Shown piece after piece: positions 3,106 to 57,436 of a stretch of 64,000 bases of DNA (positions are counted from its first letter, which is position 1; each line of letters begins with the position of its first letter). The position numbers and the translations under genes are program-made. The notes under the pieces are model-generated. The model saw only the letters and a program-made list of their open reading frames with translations. It had not been told where the DNA came from and did no database searches. Source of the stretch: Escherichia coli (GTDB lineage Bacteria > Pseudomonadota > Gammaproteobacteria > Enterobacterales > Enterobacteriaceae); NCBI RefSeq assembly GCF_044324785.1, contig NZ_CP172127.1. One strand, written 5' to 3'.

Positions 3106-3882
3106 ATGTCCGAAACAAAAAACGAACTTGAAGATCTGCTGGAAAAAGCAGCAACCGAACCGGCGCACCGCCCGGCCTTTTTCCGTACGCTACTGGGATC
3201 CACCGTCTGGGTGCCTGGTACGGCGGCGCAGGGCGAGGCTGTGGTTGAAGATAGCGCACTTGATTTACAGCACTGGGAAAAAGAAGACGGCACCAGTGTC
3301 ATTCCTTTTTTCACCTCGTTAGAAGCACTTCAACAGGTGGTTGAAGACGAACAGGCATTTGTCGTAATGCCCGTTCGCACATTGTTTGAGATGACCCTTG
3401 GCGAAACGCTCTTCCTTAATGCCAAACTGCCAACCGGTAAAGAATTTATGCCGCGTGAAATCAGTTTGCTGATTGGTGAAGAAGGAAATCTGCTGAGCAG
3501 CCAGGAAGTACTGGAAGGCGGTGAATCGCTGATATTATCGGAAGTTGCAGAGCCACCAGCACAAATGATTGATTCACTCACCACCTTATTTAAAACCATT
3601 AAGCCAGTGAAGCGTGCTTTTCTTTGTTCAATTAAAGAGAACGAAGAGGCACAGCCTAATTTACTTATTGGCATTGAAGCCGATGGTGATATCGAAGAAA
3701 TTATTCAGGCGGCGGGAAGTGTAGCGACCGATACATTACCTGGCGATGAACCCATCGATATTTGTCAGGTGAAAAAAGGGGAAAAAGGAATTAGCCACTT
3801 TATTACCGAACATATTGTGCCATTCTATGAACGTCGCTGGGGTGGTTTTTTGCGTGACTTTAAACAGAACCGGATAATCTAA
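3106..3882 (+). CDS. sseB: SseB (enhanced serine sensitivity protein)
   Basis: MSETKNELEDLLEKAATEPAHRPAFF...; start at ATG 3106 inside track ORF 3097-3882; synteny pepB-sseB-sseA. Confidence 0.9.
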   Translation: MSETKNELEDLLEKAATEPAHRPAFFRTLLGSTVWVPGTAAQGEAVVEDSALDLQHWEKEDGTSVIPFFTSLEALQQVVEDEQAFVVMPVRTLFEMTLGETLFLNAKLPTGKEFMPREISLLIGEEGNLLSSQEVLEGGESLILSEVAEPPAQMIDSLTTLFKTIKPVKRAFLCSIKENEEAQPNLLIGIEADGDIEEIIQAAGSVATDTLPGDEPIDICQVKKGEKGISHFITEHIVPFYERRWGGFLRDFKQNRII

Positions 3883-3885
3883 AAT

Positions 3886-3907
3886 ATGCCGCCCCAAAGG
3901 GCGGCAT
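3886..3907. terminator. Bidirectional stem-loop ending sseB (+) and the ryfA transcript (-)
   Basis: atgccgccc-caaa-gggcggcat, 9-bp GC-rich stem; the T-rich run is on the minus-strand side (atttta). Confidence 0.6.
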
Positions 3908-3913
3908 TCGGGC

Positions 3914-4039
3914 TTACCTGCTGTTCTGAAGGTTGTTAACCACCAATAAATTGTTGCCGGAGAGACTCCGGTTATTATTTACCTCGGTTAACAGCGCACC
4001 AGAAACAATAAGTACGATACAAAAGCACCGTATCTTCAT
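3914..4039 (-). CDS. 41-aa hydrophobic peptide inside ryfA (TimP-like type I toxin candidate)
   Basis: Hand translation gives MKIRCFCIVLIVSGALLTEVNNNRSLSGNNLLVVNNLQNSR. Below the ORF-track cutoff. Hydrophobic N-terminal segment. Confidence 0.45.
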   Translation of the reverse strand: MKIRCFCIVLIVSGALLTEVNNNRSLSGNNLLVVNNLQNSR

Positions 4040-4262
4040 TGTGCGGTCCATGCGAAGACCGCATCACGACAGCACCACTGGCGATATTGCCGCGATAGCA
4101 AGCGCTGAGACGCGCTTGCCCTAACGGTCGCGGAACATCCTTTCCTTAAGCCAGCGCCCGCTTGCGAGACGGCGGAAAGGTCCGCAGTGGATAACACACT
4201 AACAGAACAATAATAACTCTCTTTTACTTGACAAAAAGAGAGTTACTGGCGAGTATTGTGTC

Positions 4263-4359
4263 CGCTGAGACGCGCTTGCATTACTACGGTTATACAATCT
4301 GCTGGAAAGGCCGCGAACCAAACCAGCAACAAATAACCGCCTGATTTTGGCGGTTTTTT
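4263..4359 (+). ncRNA. RyfB/TimR-like antisense sRNA, copy 1
   Basis: Promoter TTGACA(4228)-17-GAGTAT; terminator accgcc-N7-ggcggt+T6 (4336-4359). Its first 17 nt (4263-4279) equal the plus-strand sequence at 4103-4119, so they are perfectly complementary to the ryfA leader. Confidence 0.5.
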
Positions 4360-4538
4360 GTTGTTTAAAGAAAGTGAAATTACACGTTTAAGTAATATCT
4401 TTTACCAGTTAGTATATTTTAATATTAAGCGGGATTTGTTTATATTTGTCTGAATTCGGACTGATAAGCCAAATGAATTCAAAATCTATCCTTTTTTATC
4501 TACTTGACATCGTTGATGCATAAAGCGAGTATTGAGTA

Positions 4539-16177: not shown

Positions 16178-17296
16178 ATGCATAACCAGGCTCCAATTCA
16201 ACGTAGAAAATCAACACGTATTTACGTTGGGAATGTGCCGATTGGCGATGGTGCTCCCATCGCCGTACAGTCCATGACCAATACGCGTACGACAGACGTC
16301 GAAGCAACGGTCAATCAAATCAAGGCGCTGGAACGCGTTGGCGCTGATATCGTCCGTGTCTCCGTACCGACGATGGACGCGGCAGAAGCGTTCAAACTCA
16401 TCAAACAGCAGGTTAACGTGCCGCTGGTGGCTGACATCCACTTCGACTATCGCATTGCGCTGAAAGTAGCGGAATACGGCGTCGATTGTCTGCGTATTAA
16501 CCCTGGCAATATCGGTAATGAAGAGCGTATTCGCATGGTGGTTGACTGTGCGCGCGATAAAAACATTCCGATCCGTATTGGCGTTAACGCCGGATCGCTG
16601 GAAAAAGATCTGCAAGAAAAGTATGGCGAACCGACGCCGCAGGCGTTGCTGGAATCCGCCATGCGTCATGTTGATCATCTCGATCGCCTGAACTTCGATC
16701 AGTTCAAAGTCAGCGTGAAAGCGTCAGACGTCTTCCTCGCTGTTGAGTCTTATCGTTTGCTGGCAAAACAGATCGATCAGCCGCTGCATCTGGGGATCAC
16801 CGAAGCGGGTGGTGCGCGCAGCGGGGCGGTTAAATCCGCCATTGGTTTAGGTCTGCTGCTGTCTGAAGGCATCGGCGACACGCTGCGCGTATCGCTGGCG
16901 GCCGATCCGGTTGAAGAGATCAAAGTCGGTTTCGATATTTTGAAATCGCTGCGTATCCGTTCGCGAGGGATCAACTTCATCGCCTGCCCGACCTGTTCGC
17001 GTCAGGAATTTGATGTTATCGGTACGGTTAACGCGCTGGAGCAACGCCTGGAAGATATCATCACTCCGATGGACGTTTCGATTATCGGCTGCGTGGTGAA
17101 TGGCCCAGGTGAGGCGCTGGTTTCTACACTCGGCGTCACCGGCGGCAACAAGAAAAGCGGCCTCTATGAAGATGGCGTGCGCAAAGACCGTCTGGACAAC
17201 AACGATATGATCGACCAGCTGGAAGCACGCATTCGTGCGAAAGCCAGTCAGCTGGACGAAGCGCGTCGAATTGACGTTCAGCAGGTTGAAAAATAA
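16178..17296 (+). CDS. ispG: HMBPP synthase
   Basis: 372 aa, [36 protein letters not shown]. Confidence 0.97.
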
Positions 17297-17305
17297 TAAC
17301 GTGAT

Positions 17306-17324
17306 GGGAAGCGCCTCGCTTCCC
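17306..17324 (+). other. Stem-loop in ispG-hisS spacer (region where sRNA SroE is described in K-12)
   Basis: gggaagcg-cct-cgcttccc, 8-bp stem, no T-run. The SroE assignment is from memory of the locus only. Confidence 0.35.
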
Positions 17325-17406
17325 GTGTATGATTGAACCCGCATGGCTCCCGAAACATTGAGGGAAGCGTTGAGGGTTCATTTTTATATTCAGAAAGAGA
17401 ATAAAC

Positions 17407-40765: not shown

Positions 40766-40937
40766 GATGACCTCCTGTTTGTTTTTAGTTACGAAAACCA
40801 GTTAGTAGCTGGTGATCGGGTGTCAACTAGAGCACAAACAGTAGCTCCGGGCATATTCCCCTTTCGGGTGTTGTATTACGCCTCTCCACCCGACCTTTGT
40901 ACGGATGTGACTATGCCAGATTGCAGGCATAAAAAAG

Positions 40938-44854: not shown

Positions 44855-44869
44855 TTACCGTTGAGGTAA
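44855..44869. promoter_or_regulatory. Operator-like palindrome TTACCgttgaGGTAA (perfect), OL-proximal
   Basis: Read directly; immediately downstream of the early-left promoter -10. Confidence 0.6.
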
Positions 44870-44897
44870 TAATTATGCGTATATGGTTTGATGTCAA
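44869..44897 (-). promoter_or_regulatory. Early-left promoter candidate
   Basis: Minus strand TTGACA (44897-44892), 17 nt, AATTAT (44874-44869). Flanked by two palindromes. Confidence 0.45.
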
Positions 44898-44916
44898 TAG
44901 ATATGAGTTAAAAAAA

Positions 44917-44931
44917 TTACCCGTTAGGTAA
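44917..44931. promoter_or_regulatory. Operator-like palindrome TTACCcgttaGGTAA (perfect), OL-distal
   Basis: Read directly; upstream of the -35 of the early-left promoter. Confidence 0.6.
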
Positions 44932-44942
44932 TCGAATAGGCA

Positions 44943-44968
44943 ATAAAAAAGCCGCCATAAGGCGGCTT
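44943..44968 (-). terminator. Intrinsic terminator after the repressor gene
   Basis: Minus strand aagccgcc-ttat-ggcggctt followed by tttttatt. Confidence 0.7.
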
Positions 44969-44988
44969 ACTTACTGAAAAATATGATT

Positions 44989-45573
44989 TTATTGTTTGTT
45001 TTTTTCGTTCTGGTTGATGACAAATTCAATGTAACTTTCGATCTTTGCTTTCTCGGTTTCGGGTAACAAAGCGTAGCGCGAGCGGTCATAGTTGATAGTC
45101 GCAGGGTCGTGCGGGTGAATCAGTAATTCATAGCCGTGACGCCCGAATGCGGATGCAACATTCTCCAGGGTGGAAATGGAAACGCTGACCTCATTGTTTA
45201 ACAGGCGGCTGATTGTCACCTGGGCGACGCCGGATGCGCGGTGAAGTTTTCCCTGCGTTGAAAGGTCGCGGCTTTCGCTCATCCAGCGTTCCAGGTTGTG
45301 AGCCGCCAGTTGACCAATGTCGCTTGGTCCGACAGGCTGAAAACCTTCCTGAGAAAGCGAGCGATCGATATCAAGCCAGTTACGGGGTTTATTGGCGGCA
45401 GCTTCAATTTTTCGCGCAACCTGGTCGCCGATAACCTTCTTGCCAAGAGCCCAGCGGTTTACCAGATTTGCCTGAGTTCCAAGTTTTTCAGCCATCCGCG
45501 TCTGAACACCATTGAATTCACGGTCGATCAAGTCGTTGAGATTTTGCCTGCGGACGTCCTGGATACTTTTCAT
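44989..45573 (-). CDS. Prophage repressor candidate with two HTH segments and no S24 peptidase domain
   Basis: 194 aa. HTH-like stretches GVQTRMAEKLGTQANLVNRWALGK and STQGKLHRASGVAQVTISRLLNNE. Divergent from the cro-like gene across the palindrome pair. Confidence 0.7.
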   Translation of the reverse strand: MKSIQDVRRQNLNDLIDREFNGVQTRMAEKLGTQANLVNRWALGKKVIGDQVARKIEAAANKPRNWLDIDRSLSQEGFQPVGPSDIGQLAAHNLERWMSESRDLSTQGKLHRASGVAQVTISRLLNNEVSVSISTLENVASAFGRHGYELLIHPHDPATINYDRSRYALLPETEKAKIESYIEFVINQNEKNKQ

Positions 45574-45627
45574 TTTCTGGAAAATCGCCTCATATCTGAA
45601 TCAGAAGATGATTCAATTTAAAGCAAT

Positions 45628-45642
45628 ATTACCCAACAGGTA
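45628..45642. promoter_or_regulatory. Operator-like palindrome TTACCcaacaGGTAA (perfect), OR region
   Basis: Read directly; between the divergent repressor and cro-like genes. Confidence 0.6.
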
Positions 45643-45666
45643 AATGCACCTCATGGGTAACTATCC

Positions 45667-45695
45667 TTGATTTTTGTTACCTTATAGGTGAATAT
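45667..45695 (+). promoter_or_regulatory. Early-right promoter candidate
   Basis: TTGATT (45667-45672), 17 nt, GAATAT (45690-45695). The spacer contains the palindrome at 45677-45691. Confidence 0.45.
45677..45691. promoter_or_regulatory. Operator-like palindrome, one mismatch (TTACCttataGGTGA), OR region
   Basis: Read directly; lies in the spacer of the early-right promoter. Confidence 0.5.
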
Positions 45696-45727
45696 TTATT
45701 ATCTGAAATAAATATCAGGCAATAGCT

Positions 45728-45958
45728 ATGAGCGATAACGGACATTTCGATTTCAAAAAGCACTGGCTTGCACTTACTCCGGATGAGCGTGAAGCCTTCG
45801 CACAGGAAGCCGGAACGACGAGTCACTATATCCAGACTCACTTAACAGGTAAGCGCAAAATGCCAGGTAAGGTATTGATGGATGGGCTTTTTAAAGCCTG
45901 TAAATCAAGACAATGGCTGCGCTCAAAAGCAGAACTGGCATACTTCTTCTACTCATGA
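45728..45958 (+). CDS. Cro-like small DNA-binding protein
   Basis: 76 aa; first rightward gene opposite the repressor; possible HTH EAFAQEAGTTSHYIQTHLTGKRK. Confidence 0.55.
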   Translation: MSDNGHFDFKKHWLALTPDEREAFAQEAGTTSHYIQTHLTGKRKMPGKVLMDGLFKACKSRQWLRSKAELAYFFYS

Positions 45959-45979
45959 TATCCAGCCACAACCCTCTGT

Positions 45980-46003
45980 AGACCGCCATCCGGCGGTCTT
46001 TTC
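45980..46003 (+). terminator. Intrinsic terminator directly after the cro-like gene
   Basis: agaccgcc-atcc-ggcggtct followed by tttt. Confidence 0.65.
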
Positions 46004-46013
46004 ATATCTATTC

Positions 46014-46028
46014 GTACCTCAAAGGTAA
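46014..46028. promoter_or_regulatory. Operator-like palindrome, one mismatch (GTACCtcaaaGGTAA)
   Basis: Read directly; 10 nt after the terminator, followed by TAAAAAA. Confidence 0.45.
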
Positions 46029-47959: not shown

Positions 47960-47974
47960 TTACCTTAGAGGTAA
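47960..47974. promoter_or_regulatory. Operator-like palindrome TTACCttagaGGTAA (perfect)
   Basis: Read directly; intergenic between the P-like and DUF1064 genes. Confidence 0.55.
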
Positions 47975-47993
47975 TAAAATATTCTAAAATCTA

Positions 47994-48022
47994 TTGATTT
48001 CGTGTCTTATGTGGTTTTTAAT
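47994..48022 (+). promoter_or_regulatory. Promoter candidate for the accessory (DUF1064...) module
   Basis: TTGATT (47994-47999), 17 nt, TTTAAT (48017-48022). The -10 overlaps the next palindrome. Confidence 0.4.
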
Positions 48023-48036
48023 TACCTAAGGGGTAA
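48022..48036. promoter_or_regulatory. Operator-like palindrome TTACCtaaggGGTAA (perfect)
   Basis: Read directly; ends 3 nt before ATG 48040 and contains its SD. Confidence 0.55.
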
Positions 48037-52285: not shown

Positions 52286-52300
52286 TTACCACAACGGTAA
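52286..52300. promoter_or_regulatory. Operator-like palindrome TTACCacaacGGTAA (perfect)
   Basis: Read directly; 18 nt upstream of the terS start. Confidence 0.55.
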
Positions 52301-52303
52301 CTA

Positions 52304-52318
52304 TTACCACGGTGGTTA
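52304..52318. promoter_or_regulatory. Operator-like palindrome, one mismatch (TTACCacggtGGTTA)
   Basis: Read directly; its last base is the A of the terS ATG. Confidence 0.45.
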
Positions 52319-52914
52319 TGATGCCTGCTGAACCTAAAACCTATAAACGCAAATCAACGCAATTTAAGCCGCTCACAGCAATGCAGGAGGCTTATTGCCA
52401 GTCATACATCAAAACGCCTGAAAACCAGACTCAGGCAGCGATTAACGCAGGATTCTCCCCAAATACAGCGGCAGTTAAAGCCAGTGTCATGATGCGCGAT
52501 GAACGCATTCAAAAACGGATTGCCGAGTTGATGGAGGAGCGCAACAAACGAATGCGCGTCAGTGCTGATTACGTTCTCATGCGCTTGGTGGAGATCGACC
52601 AGATGGACGTGATCGATATCCTCAACGACGATGGGAGCCTTAAACCAATCCGTGAGTGGCCGAAAATCTGGCGCACTACGCTTAGTGGCTTTGATCTGTC
52701 ATCGACCATCATGAACATGAACGAGGATTCGATAGAGACAATCCTCAAAAAAATTAAATGGCCTGACAAGGTGAAGAACCTAGAACTGATTGGTAAGCAC
52801 GTCGACGTCAACGCATTCAAAGAACGCCTGGATGTTAATGTGAATGTGACAATTGCTGATCGCATAGCGGCAGCCAGGAAACGACTCAAAGAACGTCAGG
52901 ATGGTAATCAGTGA
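52318..52914 (+). CDS. terS: Terminase small subunit
   Basis: Start at ATG 52318 (MMPAEPKTYKRK). KPLTAMQEAYCQSYIKTPENQTQAAINAGFSPNTAAVKAS is the Terminase_2-type HTH. Overlaps terL by 4 nt. Confidence 0.8.
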   Translation: MMPAEPKTYKRKSTQFKPLTAMQEAYCQSYIKTPENQTQAAINAGFSPNTAAVKASVMMRDERIQKRIAELMEERNKRMRVSADYVLMRLVEIDQMDVIDILNDDGSLKPIREWPKIWRTTLSGFDLSSTIMNMNEDSIETILKKIKWPDKVKNLELIGKHVDVNAFKERLDVNVNVTIADRIAAARKRLKERQDGNQ

Positions 52915-54386
52915 CAGATGCAGCGTTATCTCCTGAAGAGCAGTTGATCGAGGATATTGCAGGGTTCACTCACGATCCGCTTGGCTATGCCCTCTATGCG
53001 TTCCCGTGGGGGGAAGAGGGGACTGAACTGGCACATGCCACCGGTCCACGTCAGTGGCAGGCTGATGCGTTCCGAGAGATACGTGATCACCTGCAGAATC
53101 CAGAGACGCGCTATCAGCCGCTTATGCTGGCACGCGCTTCTGGTCACGGTATTGGTAAATCCGCATTCATCTCAATGCTGATCAACTGGGGCATGTCCAC
53201 TTGCGAGGATTGTAAGGTCGTGGTGACCGCCAACACCGACAACCAGCTACGAACGAAGACCTGGCCGGAAATTATCAAGTGGTCGAACCTTGCTATCACG
53301 AAAGACTGGTTTACCTGTACCGCTACCGCGATGTACAGCAATGATCCTGGACACGACAAGCGGTGGCGAGCTGACGCAATCCCCTGGTCTGAGCACAACA
53401 CTGAGGCATTCGCCGGACTACACAACGAGCGCAAACGCATCATCGTGGTATTCGATGAAGCGTCGAACATTGCGGATCTGGTGTGGGAGGTAGCAGAGGG
53501 TGCGCTGACGGACGAAGACACCGAAATCATCTGGGTGGCGTTCGGGAACCCGACGCGTAATACCGGACGTTTCCGCGAATGTTTCCGCAAATATAAACAC
53601 CGCTGGAAAACTGCGCAGATTGACAGCCGGACGGTGGAAGGCACTAACAAACAGCAGTTGCAGAAATGGGTTGATGACTACGGGGAAGACAGCGACTTCG
53701 TTAAAATCCGTGTGCGTGGCATATTCCCTGATGCATCTGAATTGCAGTTTATCCCTACCGGTCTTACTGACGAGGCAATGAAACGGGTGGTAACCGCTGC
53801 GCAGGTTGCACATGCTCCGGTGATAATCGGCGTTGACCCGGCATACTCCGGCGTTGATGACGCTGTGATATACCTGCGGCAGGGGCTGCACAGTAAGGTG
53901 CTATGGACTGGTAACAAGACCACCGACGATCTGATTATGGCGAAGCGTATCGCTGACTTTGAAGACCAGTATCAGGCTGACGCAGTGTTCATCGACTTTG
54001 GTTACGGTACCGGTCTGAAGTCAATCGGTGACGGCTGGGGTCGTACATGGCAACTTGTTCCGTTCGGCGGTGCGTCTACTGACCCGCAGATGCTCAATAA
54101 GCGCGGGGAGATGTTCAATGCATGCAAGACATGGCTGAGGCTGGGCGGCATGCTGGATGACCAGGAAACAGCGGACGACCTGTCGGCGGCAGAGTACAAA
54201 GTTCGAGTGGACGGTAAAATCGTTATCGAACCGAAGGAAGATATCAAAGAGCGGCTTGGGCGTTCTCCTGGTAAAGGCGATGCGCTACTGCTGACGTTTG
54301 CGTTCCCTGTGTCGAAGCGTCTGCGAATTCCCGGGCAGCAGAACCAGCAAGGCAAGGCCATCACAGATTACGATCCCTATGCTTAA
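52911..54386 (+). CDS. terL: Terminase large subunit
   Basis: 491 aa; Walker A ARASGHGIGKSAF; Walker B-like IIVVFDEAS; position after terS. Confidence 0.9.
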   Translation: MTDAALSPEEQLIEDIAGFTHDPLGYALYAFPWGEEGTELAHATGPRQWQADAFREIRDHLQNPETRYQPLMLARASGHGIGKSAFISMLINWGMSTCEDCKVVVTANTDNQLRTKTWPEIIKWSNLAITKDWFTCTATAMYSNDPGHDKRWRADAIPWSEHNTEAFAGLHNERKRIIVVFDEASNIADLVWEVAEGALTDEDTEIIWVAFGNPTRNTGRFRECFRKYKHRWKTAQIDSRTVEGTNKQQLQKWVDDYGEDSDFVKIRVRGIFPDASELQFIPTGLTDEAMKRVVTAAQVAHAPVIIGVDPAYSGVDDAVIYLRQGLHSKVLWTGNKTTDDLIMAKRIADFEDQYQADAVFIDFGYGTGLKSIGDGWGRTWQLVPFGGASTDPQMLNKRGEMFNACKTWLRLGGMLDDQETADDLSAAEYKVRVDGKIVIEPKEDIKERLGRSPGKGDALLLTFAFPVSKRLRIPGQQNQQGKAITDYDPYA

Positions 54387-54431
54387 TCCTCTGGTGGGGA
54401 TAATGTCGTTGATATCCTCTGGTGAGGATAA
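54386..54431. repeat. Two 18-nt direct repeats ATCCTCTGGTG(G/A)GGATAA, each a small hairpin
   Basis: Copies at 54386-54403 and 54414-54431 (17/18 identical). The second folds as tatcctc-tggt-gaggata. Confidence 0.6.
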
Positions 54432-54436
54432 AACAA

Positions 54437-54456
54437 AGCCAGCTCATAGGCTGGCT
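54437..54456. terminator. Bidirectional terminator between terL (+) and the gp49-like gene (-)
   Basis: agccagc-tcatag-gctggct; T-rich on the minus side (ttgtttt), gttt on the plus side. Confidence 0.6.
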
Positions 54457-54470
54457 GTTTGTGACATGTC

Positions 54471-54482
54471 ACGGTGTTATTG
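54471..54482. promoter_or_regulatory. 12-bp perfect palindrome GTGACATGTCAC, copy 2
   Basis: Identical to 52196-52207; overlaps the stop of the gp49-like gene. Confidence 0.4.
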
Positions 54483-54833
54483 CTCGCTTAACTTCTGCTT
54501 CAGCAAGTAACCTTCAAGCATCCAGATTTTGTTTACAGCATTCTGCCGGGCAATCTTCCGACCAATTTCTGCATCAAAGTTTTCCGGGCTTGCACAGGCA
54601 CTCTCTCCGGTAACGGTGAAGCCATTCTTCAGTACCAATACGCAGAAAGTCAGGAGGTCTGTAGATTTATGCGCTACCCATGAATCGCCAACGCCCATAT
54701 TGGCAGCACGAATGCCGTCATAAGCAGTAAAGAAATGCTCTTCAAGAATGATGCTTTCGATATATTGAGGCGTAACTCGCGGAGCGGTTTTGCCTTTCTC
54801 AACGATTTCTTTTTCGATTTGCTGGTCGTTCAT
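54477..54833 (-). CDS. N4 gp49 / Sf6 gp66-family phage protein
   Basis: 118 aa; LTFCVLVLKNGFTVTGESACASPENFDAEIGRKIARQNAVNKIW matches my memory of that family. Opposite strand to the flanking late genes. Confidence 0.65.
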   Translation of the reverse strand: MNDQQIEKEIVEKGKTAPRVTPQYIESIILEEHFFTAYDGIRAANMGVGDSWVAHKSTDLLTFCVLVLKNGFTVTGESACASPENFDAEIGRKIARQNAVNKIWMLEGYLLKQKLSEQ

Positions 54834-54844
54834 AATCTCACCTT

Positions 54845-54868
54845 AAAAAAATGCCCGGCGAACCGGGC
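54845..54868 (-). terminator. Intrinsic terminator abutting the gp49-like RBS
   Basis: Minus strand gcccgg-ttcg-ccgggc + attttttt, then AAGGTGAG-att-ATG. Confidence 0.6.
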
Positions 54869-54944
54869 GAACTGGAAGCAATGAGTTATGCCTTCCGTGG
54901 CTGTACTGGTTTACAGCATGAAGTCATCGCAATGGCGTCGTGCT

Positions 54945-54988
54945 GTAAAAAGGGCGGTGATAGTCCTTCAAGGGAAACCATCACCGCC
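54945..54988 (-). terminator. Intrinsic terminator downstream of the tRNA
   Basis: Minus strand ggcggtgat-N18-atcaccgcc followed by cttttta. Confidence 0.6.
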
Positions 54989-55031
54989 AAGCCCCTGGAA
55001 CTTCTGGCATCACGGTCCTTAGGCGTGATTC

Positions 55032-55108
55032 TGGCGTGGCATGCAGGATTCGAACCTGCGACCAACCGCTTAGAAGGCGGTTGCTCTGTCCGACTGAGCT
55101 AATGCCAC
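55032..55108 (-). tRNA. tRNA-Arg (anticodon UCU), phage-encoded, CCA encoded
   Basis: Hand-folded cloverleaf: GTGGCAT/ATGCCAC acceptor, GCTC/GAGC D stem, ACCGC-CTTCTAA-GCGGT anticodon arm, GCAGG-TTCGAAT-CCTGC T arm, G-CCA. Confidence 0.9.
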
Positions 55109-55430
55109 AACGCTGAGAGCACTTAGCCTGTTAAGGCGCCACACTTTGTCGCGGCTCCATAAATGCTCTCATCGTTGTACCCTCGTCTCTTCCGAGGCGT
55201 CACACCGAATCGCCGGGATGGTGAATCCCCGTGCGCGGAATAAAACCGCTCGACTTGCACATTCCGGCTACCTGGTTCGTTTGCCCGAGCAAGGGAGGGT
55301 GCCCCTTAAACGTATCCAGACCGCTATCGGCGCATGTGCCATACGCCGTACTGCTCAAAATAAAAGCTCACTCCACCTGTTTAATTTAACGACAAGCCAG
55401 TCAGGTTAGTAACCAGAATGAGCTCTTTAG
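55109..55430 (-). ncRNA. Unassigned ~320-nt GC-rich leader between promoter and tRNA (candidate structured RNA)
   Basis: No convincing ORF. Contains an 11-bp helix gagagcattta/taagtgctctc (55118-55128 / 55163-55173) and several local hairpins. Bounded by a sigma70-like promoter and the tRNA. Confidence 0.3.
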
Positions 55431-55445
55431 TTACCCGAAAGGTAA
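55431..55445. promoter_or_regulatory. Operator-like palindrome TTACCcgaaaGGTAA (perfect)
   Basis: Read directly; overlaps the -10 of the minus-strand tRNA-cassette promoter. Confidence 0.55.
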
Positions 55446-55467
55446 TAATTCACGCGTTAAATGTCAA
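55439..55467 (-). promoter_or_regulatory. Promoter candidate for the leader-tRNA unit
   Basis: Minus strand TTGACA (55467-55462), 17 nt, TACCTT (55444-55439). Confidence 0.4.
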
Positions 55468-55535
55468 CCTTCTACGATAAATAAATCATATGTGGTTAAA
55501 TTGGTAATAATTTAATTGCGTACGGAGTCATTGAT

Positions 55536-55742
55536 ATGTGCATGGGTAGCTCACCATCAGTGCCTGCAACACCAGAAGTTCAGGCAGCACCACAGGAGCA
55601 GGATGCCGCCGTTGTTGATGCCCGCGACGAAGAAACACGTCGCCGTCGCGCTGCTGCTGGTCGTAGTTCTACGCTGCTTACCGGTTCTCAGGGCGACACA
55701 TCAACCGCTAATACCAGCGGTAAAACGCTGCTTGGTCAGTAA
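55536..55742 (+). CDS. Small hypothetical protein preceding the portal gene
   Basis: 68 aa, low complexity (MCMGSSPSVPATPEVQAAPQ...). Its RBS context cggagtcattgatATG is nearly identical to that of the portal gene. Confidence 0.45.
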   Translation: MCMGSSPSVPATPEVQAAPQEQDAAVVDARDEETRRRRAAAGRSSTLLTGSQGDTSTANTSGKTLLGQ

Positions 55743-55756
55743 CCGGAGTCATTGAA

Positions 55757-57436
55757 ATGGCGGAAACAACTAAAGAGCGATTGAACAAACAGTTCGCACA
55801 ACTTGAAAGCGAGCGTCAGTCGTTCGAGCCGCACTGGCGCGAGTTGAGTGATTACATCAACCCGCGTGGTTCCCGCTTTCTGACTTCTGAGGTCAACCGT
55901 AACGATCGACGCAATACACGTATTATTGATTCGACCGGGACTATGGCGGCGCGCACTCTCGCCAGCGGCATGATGTCAGGCATCACAAGCCCCGCGCGTC
56001 CGTGGTTTCGCCTGGCTACGCCAGATCCTGAAATGATGGATTATGGCCCTGTTAAGTTGTGGCTTGAGGCGGTGCAGAACCGCATGAACGATATGTTCAA
56101 TAAGTCGAATCTCTACCAGTCTCTTCCGCAGTTATACGGAAGCCTCGGCACATACAGCACCGGTGCAATGGCGGTACTGGAGGATGACGAGGACATCATT
56201 CGCACAATGCCATTCCCGATAGGCAGTTACTACCTGGCTAACTCACCTCGTGGCAGTGTTGACACCTGTTTTCGCAAGTTCTCTATGACTGTTCGTCAGC
56301 TTGTTCAGGAGTTCGGGCTAAATAACGTCAGCGAATCCGTAAAAAGCATGTGGGAAAGCGGCACCTACGAGAAGTGGATCGAAGTGATGCATTCGGTTTA
56401 CCCGAACATTGACCGCGATACATCGAAGCTGGATAGCAAGAACAAGCCATTCAAATCGGTTTATTACGAGGTTGGTGGCGATAACGACAAGTTGTTGCGT
56501 GAGTCCGGATTCGATGAGTTTCCAATTATGGCTCCGCGCTGGGAAGTTAATGGCGAAGATGTTTATGGATCATCATGCCCGGGTATGCTGGCGCTTGGAC
56601 CTGTTAAGGCATTGCAGCTTCTCCAGAAGCGCAAGTCGCAGTTGATTGATAAAGCCACCAATCCGCCGATGGTTGCTCCGACTTCCCTCAAGAATCAGCG
56701 TGCCTCCCTTCTTCCTGGCGACATCACGTATATCGATCAGATTACTGGTCAGGATGGCTTCAGGCCTGCTTATCTGGTTAACCCCAGTACAGCAGATTTG
56801 GTGGCAGACATTCAGGACACTCGTCAAATCATTAACAGCGCCTACTTCGTCGATCTGTTCATGATGTTGCAGAACATCAATACCCGCTCAATGCCTGTTG
56901 AAGCGGTGATCGAAATGAAAGAAGAAAAGCTTCTGATGTTGGGGCCGGTTCTGGAGCGTCTGAACGACGAATGTCTTAATCCTCTCATTGACCGCGCTTT
57001 CTCGATGATGGTGCGTAAAAACATGCTGCCGCCACCGCCTGACGCGATGGAAGGCATGCCCCTGAAGGTCGAATACATTTCCGTCATGGCTCAGGCGCAG
57101 AAGTCTATCGGCCTGTCCAGTCTGGCGTCCACGGTTAACTTCATTGGTCAACTTGCGCAAGCGAAACCAGAAGCTCTCGACAAACTCAACGTTGATCAGG
57201 CGATCGATGCATTCGCTGATATGTCCGGAGTGTCTCCAACCGTCATTGTTCCGCAGGAACAGGTTGAGCAGGCTCGCCAGCAACGGGCACAGCAGCAACA
57301 GCAGCAACAAATGATGGCGATGGGGATGGCGGCGGCACAGGGTGCCAAGACGCTAAGCGAAGCTAAAACTTCGGATCCGAGTGTTTTGTCAGCTATGGCG
57401 AATGCAGTTAGTGGTCAGGGTGGGCAATCACAATGA
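55757..57436 (+). CDS. Portal (head-to-tail connector) protein, podovirus type
   Basis: 559 aa; the N-terminus ERLNKQFAQLESERQSFEPHWRELSDYINPRGSRF resembles T7/BPP-1-type connectors; Gln-rich tail; position before scaffold and capsid. Confidence 0.8.
   Translation: MAETTKERLNKQFAQLESERQSFEPHWRELSDYINPRGSRFLTSEVNRNDRRNTRIIDSTGTMAARTLASGMMSGITSPARPWFRLATPDPEMMDYGPVKLWLEAVQNRMNDMFNKSNLYQSLPQLYGSLGTYSTGAMAVLEDDEDIIRTMPFPIGSYYLANSPRGSVDTCFRKFSMTVRQLVQEFGLNNVSESVKSMWESGTYEKWIEVMHSVYPNIDRDTSKLDSKNKPFKSVYYEVGGDNDKLLRESGFDEFPIMAPRWEVNGEDVYGSSCPGMLALGPVKALQLLQKRKSQLIDKATNPPMVAPTSLKNQRASLLPGDITYIDQITGQDGFRPAYLVNPSTADLVADIQDTRQIINSAYFVDLFMMLQNINTRSMPVEAVIEMKEEKLLMLGPVLERLNDECLNPLIDRAFSMMVRKNMLPPPPDAMEGMPLKVEYISVMAQAQKSIGLSSLASTVNFIGQLAQAKPEALDKLNVDQAIDAFADMSGVSPTVIVPQEQVEQARQQRAQQQQQQQMMAMGMAAAQGAKTLSEAKTSDPSVLSAMANAVSGQGGQSQ

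Follow-up and report, generated by a model that had tools for sequence, protein, structure and literature searches.

A structured RNA family in early units of phiV10-like, P1-like and lambdoid phages, a candidate for cis-acting antitermination

What is encoded by a phage leader that follows a promoter, precedes a transfer RNA (tRNA) gene and holds no credible gene of its own? The question is raised by positions 55,109-55,430 of a 64,000-nucleotide (nt) stretch of Escherichia coli DNA (contig NZ_CP172127.1, assembly GCF_044324785.1; hereafter the window), where a sequence-only reading had proposed an uncharacterised structured RNA on the minus strand, framed by its linkage to tRNA-Arg(UCU) and likened to the large phage RNAs GOLLD and ROOL. 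Here we describe the RNA family to which this leader belongs (its conserved part is called the element below), and weigh the tentative reading that the element makes RNA polymerase resistant to terminators.

A conserved minus-strand RNA with a defined fold

BLAST relates the element to several groups of phages. Positions 55109-55349 (~240 nt) are 82% identical to the lambdoid phages mEp460, cdtI, 2H10 and PhiR40_1 and to Stx2c-converting phages, and P1, P7, D6, SJ46 and RCS47 have a segment with ~80% identity to the first 165 nt. An alignment of 10 BLAST-derived homologues, which were not chosen on the sequence of the 19-mer listed in Table 1, shows invariant blocks, variable-length hairpins and paired substitutions. 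An exact scan with the 19-mer yielded at least 120 IMG/VR contigs; 111 of the resulting sequences were unique, and they formed 41 clusters below 88% identity. The structure was derived on 39 representatives (alignment A2). The figures that follow are to be read in the light of a phylogenetically narrow family, most of whose sequences were collected by this exact seed. In A2, standard pairing is found in 97.4% of cells, and both partners vary in 11 of the 29 pairs. Neither this degree of pairing nor the covariation score was reached in any of 500 shuffles (a count not to be read as a probability), and pairing fell to 27-54% when the partners were shifted by 1-3 columns. A structure-blind ranking by mutual information over 95 sequences placed the same pairs on top, including that of the pseudoknot described below. 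The collection of homologues by BLASTN and the covariation test, both suggested in the sequence-only reading, thus favoured a structured RNA.

The alignment also bears on the strand and on coding. Two wobble pairs of the minus strand are fixed, one U-G in 39 of the 39 sequences and the other G-U in 35; since a fixed G-U would be an A-C mismatch on the other strand, it is the minus-strand transcript that folds. The sequence-only reading had seen ~320 nt without a credible open reading frame (ORF), and had named codon-like conservation of a plus-strand 87-codon frame as the result that would speak against an RNA. Stops interrupt every one of the six frames among the 41 representatives, the shortest open stretch measuring 18-30 codons depending on the frame, and no frame, the 87-codon one included, is conserved.

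Nor does the element belong to a family represented in Rfam. A cmscan of 54300-56000 against Rfam 15 at a permissive E-value (E <= 10), likewise proposed beforehand, returned the tRNA only, in keeping with the earlier remark that the leader matches none of the familiar RNAs (RNase P, tmRNA, 6S, tRNA); scans at gathering threshold, which covered the whole window and the mEp460, SfIV, phiNP and HK639 loci, gave no match on the element. With no Rfam 15 match, membership in any of its families, such as those of tRNA, tmRNA, RNase P, 6S, GOLLD, ROOL, C4, isrK, known riboswitches or small ribozymes, was rejected, and by-eye resemblances to group I introns, hammerheads, RNase P, SRP and Y RNA were dropped for want of Rfam support. 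Full-text searches of the literature with the 19-mer and searches by topic found no description, although a prior one may exist. The element has the general hallmarks of a structured RNA (compensatory pairs, strand specificity, no conserved ORF), and together these comparisons support an uncharacterised, non-coding structured RNA, which we judge, as far as can be determined, to represent a new and undescribed family.

Overall, the full element spans ~245 nt including its 3' domain and comprises six helices and at least one pseudoknot (Table 1). The four helices drawn by hand in the sequence-only reading are all present, and homologues preserve them through compensatory changes. In helix 1, one pair is G-C in 16 sequences and A-U in 22, and pair 8-20 ranks among the top mutual-information pairs. 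Helix 2 contains one pair that alternates between C-G (31) and U-A (8) and another between G-C (37) and A-U (2), and its inner pairs 41-73 and 42-72 covary by mutual information. The pseudoknot pair is C-G in 36 and A-U in 3 of the 39 sequences, and C-G in 75 and A-U in 20 of the 95. An RNAalifold alternative pairs the helix 1 loop (GCACAU) with AUGUGC of the 19-mer; all bases concerned are invariant, and a second pseudoknot between this loop and the 19-mer is possible according to the folding model.

The peripheral parts are more variable. In the optional 3' domain, ACAACG/CGUUGU and GAGAGCAUUUA/UAAGUGCUCUC (GAGAGCA/UGCUCUC) close an inner hairpin, GCCGCG-ACAAAG-UGUGGC, and compensatory variants of the closing helix include AAGAGCA/UGCUCUU, GAGCGCAC/GUGCGCUC and AAAGGCG/CGCCGUUU. 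P1 and PAT1-type copies lack the domain, and unrelated inserts are found in others. Some 3' domains or flanks contain hairpins that resemble a T-arm, with GGTTCGATTCC or CTGGTTCAATTCCAG (locus L010, SPN1S, at ~1380-1480, and loci L006, L106, L079 and L166); a tRNA or tRNA-like gene hidden in the variable 3' domains was considered and rejected, as ARAGORN calls no tRNA in the T-arm-containing variants. At the other end, the arms of the 5' leader hairpin covary in relatives (e.g., AAAGCGCGCU/AGCGCGCUUU and GAAAGCGCAC/GUGCGCUUC), the epsilon15 record annotates an RNase III site on this stretch, and the minimum free energy (MFE) of the leader has a z-score of -2.5.

Genomic contexts of the element

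The element is common in E. coli: 1839 of 5426 complete genomes carry a match, and 554 of the places lie on plasmids. E. coli K-12 is without it, its prophage CPS-53 keeping only the downstream yfdP-yfdT genes, which may explain why the element has gone unnoticed. A further pattern scan of genome contigs (TGGCACATG-N6-8-AGCGGTC) proved too unspecific, most of its 120 loci matching by chance. Nine matches were upheld by the element model R1, and the seven of these with titles are all Enterobacteriaceae; the genera and species met were Kosakonia, Phytobacter, Superficieibacter, Escherichia whittamii and Enterobacter, a taxonomic range that reflects only what was sampled.

Classification of 134 dereplicated loci shows where the element resides. 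About 68 lie directly downstream of cI on the same strand, in at least three immunity types; ~42 occupy the portal-terminase gap of phiV10/epsilon15-like phages; ~13 are found in the P1-type ban operon, between tRNA-Ile and ban; and 11 are elsewhere. In lambdoid phages the order is cI, the cI terminator, an operator-covered sigma-70 promoter and, 40-120 nt later, the element. Since the operators are the same as those between cI and cro (OR), they identify the promoter in front as PL/OL, and transcription of the early-left operon begins with the element. In P1 the ban operon is governed by the C1 repressor, and in the phiV10 group the promoter is covered by an operator (see below). Repressor control of an early unit is thus common to all three contexts, which are those of temperate enterobacterial phages. 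In mEp460, matches to the C4 antisense RNA and isrK also lie near the Rha antirepressor gene (L002 206-394, minus strand).

The tRNA, by which the sequence-only reading had framed the element, turns out to be a less informative neighbour than the start of the early operon. In 28 of the 134 loci tRNA-Arg(UCU) is directly 3' of the element and in 16 tRNA-Ile(CAU) is directly 5' of it, so that 44 have an adjacent tRNA; the other 90 have none within 400 nt. The linkage is incidental and not a defining association.

The E. coli prophage that carries the copy in the window is a Uetakevirus, of the phiV10/epsilon15 type, and shares 98% identity over 54850-55560 with phiV10 and with the O157 typing phages 9 and 10. 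The element forms part of a small minus-strand unit between the plus-strand terminase and portal genes, in which the promoter is followed by ~320 nt without a conserved ORF, a tRNA and terminators. Most of this layout had been described from the sequence and stands: the tRNA-Arg(UCU) with its terminator is there, GC content is 0.56-0.59 over 55100-55350 vs 0.35-0.36 just upstream, and the promoter TTGACA-17-TACCTT is overlapped by a palindrome. Its -35 hexamer and spacing are perfect; the -10 hexamer is weak, with 3 of 6 consensus matches, which is why a consensus promoter scan did not call it. Transcription would start near 55432. The palindrome TTACC-N5-GGTAA has 8 exact copies in the window vs 1.1 expected, and the GenBank record of epsilon15 labels the homologous site "repressor binding site"; the leader promoter is therefore very likely repressor-controlled. 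The same palindrome is clustered at 44855-46028, 47960-48036 and 52286-52318, which are probably other operator sites of the prophage repressor and would mark further repressor-controlled promoters.

The gene slot downstream of the tRNA is variable. In the window it holds a PF13876 protein (N4 gp49/Sf6 gp66), and in Klebsiella phage ST512-KPC3phi13.3 (L009 1711-2232) a DUF2829 protein, DUF2829 being the family of the anti-Thoeris protein Tad2; the slot may be an accessory or anti-defence hotspot. Elsewhere in the window, Rfam matches at gathering score include the chromosomal E. coli small RNAs ryfA, IS128 and sroE (regions 3881-4495, minus strand, and 17296-17387, plus strand), which mark the left part of the window as host chromosome, and sRNA-Xcc1 at 40806-40895 (minus strand).

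Table 1. Features of the RNA element and of its surroundings, in window coordinates
Feature	Position	Strand	Remarks
Large terminase gene	52911-54386	+	
Intrinsic terminator 3	54437-54456	-	End of the small minus-strand unit
118-amino-acid ORF, Phage_gp49_66 family (PF13876)	54477-54833	-	Pfam E = 1.4e-34; past terminators 1 and 2
Intrinsic terminator 2	54853-54868	-	GCCCGG-UUCG-CCGGGC, then AUUUUUUU; the following ORF's ribosome binding site comes right after it
Intrinsic terminator 1	54953-54988	-	14-bp stem, then CUUUUU
tRNA-Arg(UCU)	55032-55108	-	ARAGORN; Rfam tRNA 73.3 bits; directly 3' of the RNA element
Optional 3' domain	55107-55178	-	Last pairs use the first tRNA nucleotides
Conserved core, ~170 nt	55181-55351	-	Model R1, 149.7 bits, E = 1.6e-42
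Helix 5, hairpin CCUCG-GAAGAGA-CGAGG	55181-55197	-	4 of 5 pairs change on both sides
Pseudoknot, GGUG with CACC of the helix 4 loop	55203-55206	-	
Helix 4, GGA/UCC, loop UUCACCA	55216-55228	-	100% paired; 2 of 3 pairs change on both sides
Helix 3, variable hairpin GCGG-UUUUAUU-CCGC	55235-55249	-	Length and sequence differ among homologues
Helix 6, GCCG (in the 19-mer)/CGGC	55265-55268 with 55212-55215	-	99% paired
Invariant 19-mer GGUAGCCGGAAUGUGCAAG (GGTAGCCGGAATGTGCAAG)	55254-55272	-	Unchanged in the 10 BLAST-derived homologues
Helix 2, UCUG/CAGG	55271-55320	-	Closes a hairpin insert of variable length
Helix 1, hairpin CGGCGUAUG-GCA-CAUGCGCCG	55328-55348	-	
5' leader hairpin AAAGAGCUCA ... 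UGAGCUUUU	55362-55428	-	phiV10/epsilon15 group only; MFE fold
Operator palindrome TTACC-N5-GGTAA	55431-55445		Overlaps the -10 hexamer and the transcription start
-10 hexamer TACCTT	55439-55444	-	17-nt spacer after the -35; identical in epsilon15
-35 hexamer TTGACA	55462-55467	-	Read directly; identical in epsilon15
Portal gene	55757-57436	+	

Candidate functions of the element

The reading that we favour, tentatively and at somewhat less than an even chance, is that of a cis-acting early-leader RNA that makes RNA polymerase terminator-resistant. The element would be transcribed as the first part of a repressor-controlled early operon and, while still nascent, would act in cis on the polymerase that has just made it, converting the elongation complex into a terminator-resistant and pause-resistant form, as with the put RNAs of phage HK022. 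In the window, transcription could then proceed past the two terminators between tRNA-Arg and the PF13876 ORF, and in lambdoid phages past the terminator before the yfdP-to-xis/int operon. This proposal builds on the orientation of the element, its place behind operator-covered early promoters, a slot common with put and the terminators that follow it; polymerase binding, read-through and action in cis would be by analogy with put.

The positional parallel with put is extensive. HK022 carries both putL and putR, and its putL occupies the same slot of the PL leader as the element. The record of HK639 likewise annotates a "putL-like antiterminator RNA" behind a "putative pL", a feature that is a put homologue and not the element (on the PR side, past cII, the same record has an entry for an "M3-like RNA" at L255 13911-13970). 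A scan with a put 14-mer identified 73 put loci for comparison. Phages whose cI and PL are homologous have one RNA or the other: in locus L029 (element) and locus L352 (put), cI and PL are 75% identical until ~110 nt before the RNA and diverge from there. Downstream, both leader types share modules, namely GUGGUGAA with a hairpin, and AAGCCGGAGAUCAGCACCGG; at L002 2740-2880, L011 and L018 as well as at the put-type loci L272, L336 and L347, the shared downstream modules include GUGGUGAAU with a short hairpin, and AAGCCGGAGAUCAGCACCGGYCACCACAAC. A canonical boxA (GCTCTTTAACAATCTGG) also occurs in some leaders of either type. Within 900 nt downstream, before the first ORF, 34 of 60 lambdoid element loci have a strong sense-strand intrinsic terminator vs 32 of 64 put loci, and the upstream peak formed by the cI terminator is the same in both. 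The common slot, modules and terminators thus support a functional equivalence of element and put by position. A 5' module, AACAGGCAGGAYGCCCACGAAGUAGCCGCC, is in addition common to SfIV, L094, L128 and L352.

Two more points favour this reading. The record of mEp460 annotates Q and no N, and an arginine-rich motif is absent from the YfdP-like first ORF of its PL operon. Moreover, 2H10 carries the element, and for lambdoid phages that are related to 2H10 and lack N a mechanism like that of put has been surmised (PMC12315714).

Several observations weigh against antitermination in cis. The phages were found to have a single copy each, on the PL side. The copy of P1 lies 2.3 kb into its operon, with no predicted terminator before ban, and the unit of the phiV10 group consists of a tRNA and one small gene and runs antisense into terL. 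Epsilon15 (L001 1840-1900) retains, besides the promoter and the 5' hairpin, only ~45 nt of the core; the remainder of the element was lost in a deletion, together with the tRNA and terminator 1. In SfIV (L258 1320-2300), cI/PL and the first early gene are as in cdtI, and the core is replaced by ~800 nt with oppositely oriented ORFs, so that of the element just the 3' end AGCGTTGTGGTGAATGCGG is left; at least one isolated phage can therefore do without the element. (The SfIV leader carries the canonical boxA GCTCTTTAACAATCTGG.) Searches for common ancestry with put were also negative: put model R2 (27 put sequences), run with filters off on 12 element loci, gave no match at E <= 10, element model R1 found nothing in HK022 or HK639, and the best nhmmer score between element and put was 1.7 bits vs 5.2 in shuffles. 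Finally, a terminator 150-200 nt past the element fits a discrete non-coding RNA gene equally well.

Such a gene is the main rival, if a rather unlikely one: a discrete, stable early RNA acting in trans, carried as an accessory "moron" gene, freed through RNase P cleavage at the 5' end of the tRNA, RNase III cleavage in the 5' hairpin or a terminator of its own, and binding a host or phage protein as, for example, a sponge, an inhibitor or an anti-defence decoy. The patchy, mosaic spread of the element over three unrelated phage groups and its loss from SfIV and epsilon15 are typical of accessory cargo, and its neighbours are accessory as well (rare-codon tRNAs, the P1 tci genes and dicF-like region, and the variable small gene encoding PF13876 or, in the Klebsiella phage, DUF2829). 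With a terminator within ~200 nt, the 34 of 60 lambdoid loci mentioned above would yield a discrete RNA of ~400 nt, and in the window RNase P cleavage at 55108 would set an exact 3' end, while the RNase III site of the epsilon15 record lies in the 5' hairpin; long invariant stretches such as the 19-mer would suit contact with a protein or ligand. However, no partner gene co-occurs with the element across its contexts. Most classified loci are sense-oriented within a repressor-controlled early unit, and PL-first in the lambdoids, a placement that a free-standing gene does not need. Moreover, if nothing but an RNA gene and a terminator came after PL, the early-left operon would have no promoter.

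That the element is a riboswitch-like sensor appears improbable. Its pseudoknotted core would bind a small molecule or ion, with the 3' helix or a boxA-like UGCUCU(C/U) serving as expression platform, and would couple host physiology to elongation through the early operon. The layout, with invariant junction nucleotides, variable peripheral hairpins and a pseudoknot, is aptamer-like, and the element sits in a 5' leader. In addition, the 3' strand of the closing helix, UGCUCUC or UGCUCUUU, resembles the boxA consensus, and a true boxA occurs in related leaders. Against this, no expression platform is consistent across copies: the 3' domain is missing (P1, PAT1-type) or replaced by unrelated domains, what follows downstream may be a tRNA, a gene start or a distant terminator, and no riboswitch family of Rfam matches.

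A tRNA-associated RNA, either a leader that helps the neighbouring phage tRNA to mature or to function, or a tRNA-linked RNA of the GOLLD/ROOL kind, is very improbable. It would account for the loci with tRNA-Arg directly 3' or tRNA-Ile directly 5', for the overlap of the closing helix with the first tRNA nucleotides and for the T-arm-like hairpins with GGTTCGATTCC; yet the loci without a tRNA within 400 nt, the lambdoid ones above all, largely refute it, the tRNA is on opposite sides of the element in the two linked groups, ARAGORN finds none in the T-arm variants, and no GOLLD or ROOL model matches an element one third their size. Last, a small protein-coding gene is scarcely credible and is ruled out by the comparative data: ORFs of 45-87 codons are present in the window, the plus-strand one among them, and hypothetical proteins are annotated over the element in some records, but none of the frames stays open across the 41 representatives, the variable hairpins accept insertions and deletions of arbitrary length, 19 nt are fully invariant with third positions included, and substitutions are paired and compensatory. 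The hypothetical proteins in question (mEp460_037, L002 2443-2811, similar to UTI89_C5094, and Tyrion gp54, L007 1411-1572) are probably spurious.

What the element could mean depends on which of these roles it has. How N-less lambdoid phages pass their early terminators is an acknowledged gap (PMC12315714), for which the element, with its defined fold and nucleotides that never vary, offers a concrete and mutable candidate; its carriers include phages that are easy to work with (P1, mEp460, phiV10) and Stx2c-converting prophages of medical relevance. Were it to act in trans instead, it would still be among the most widespread unannotated structured RNAs in E. coli.

Relation to put and other phage and bacterial RNAs

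The known systems resemble the element to different degrees. GOLLD and ROOL are likewise prophage-borne and sometimes next to tRNA genes, but they measure 600-800 nt and occur mostly in other phyla; the analogy drawn in the sequence-only reading is weak because the element has 170-250 nt and matches neither model.

The lambda nut/N and rrn boxA/Nus systems come closer, nut in occupying the same PL-leader slot and both through the boxA strings in related leaders. In contrast to lambda, no N is annotated in mEp460 and the first ORF is without an arginine-rich motif, while the boxA-like string of the element, unlike that of nut or rrn, is predicted to be paired and covaries with its partner. A lambda-type nut site was rejected on these grounds.

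A precedent for the mid-operon position in P1 is given by EAR (eps-associated RNA) of Bacillus, a pseudoknotted RNA of ~120 nt that lies inside its operon and mediates read-through of distal terminators. EAR is an RNA of processive antitermination, although its hosts and sequence are unrelated and no Rfam family matched the element.

The closest parallel by position is put. Few RNAs are known to reprogramme RNA polymerase unaided, and among those of phages put has for thirty years been the sole example. The lambdoid members of the element family are likewise placed just downstream of an early promoter in phages without N, the window copy itself being that of a phiV10-like phage behind an operator-covered promoter. 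Homology is another matter, and was rejected with covariance models and hidden Markov models in both directions. The conserved sequence of put (GAACGGCGCG...CCAUGCGUCGG...GGCG...CAAU) is not found in the element, and the short strings that the two do share (ACGGCG...CAUGCGUCG around the critical U28, GGCG, the GGAAGAG loop and GCAA) were picked out post hoc, lack statistical support and were set aside. The single, PL-side copy of the element differs from the putL and putR of HK022, as does its presence in P1-like and phiV10/epsilon15-like phages.

At ~70 nt, put binds the beta' zinc-binding domain of RNA polymerase and confers terminator resistance without a phage protein (PMC9378689). Its two-stem "V" contrasts with the six helices and pseudoknot that make up the 170-245 nt of the element. 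By position, then, the element would be a phage early-leader regulatory RNA analogous to put, and there is a substantial chance that it represents a structurally new class of polymerase-modifying RNA. In its full form, to which we give a real but minority chance, this would be a class of protein-independent, polymerase-reprogramming RNA for processive antitermination (in a bolder variant, one whose aptamer-like core would in addition sense a host signal and so gate early lytic transcription), unrelated in structure to put and about three times larger, that serves P1-like, phiV10/epsilon15-like and N-less lambdoid phages, the Stx2c-converting ones included.

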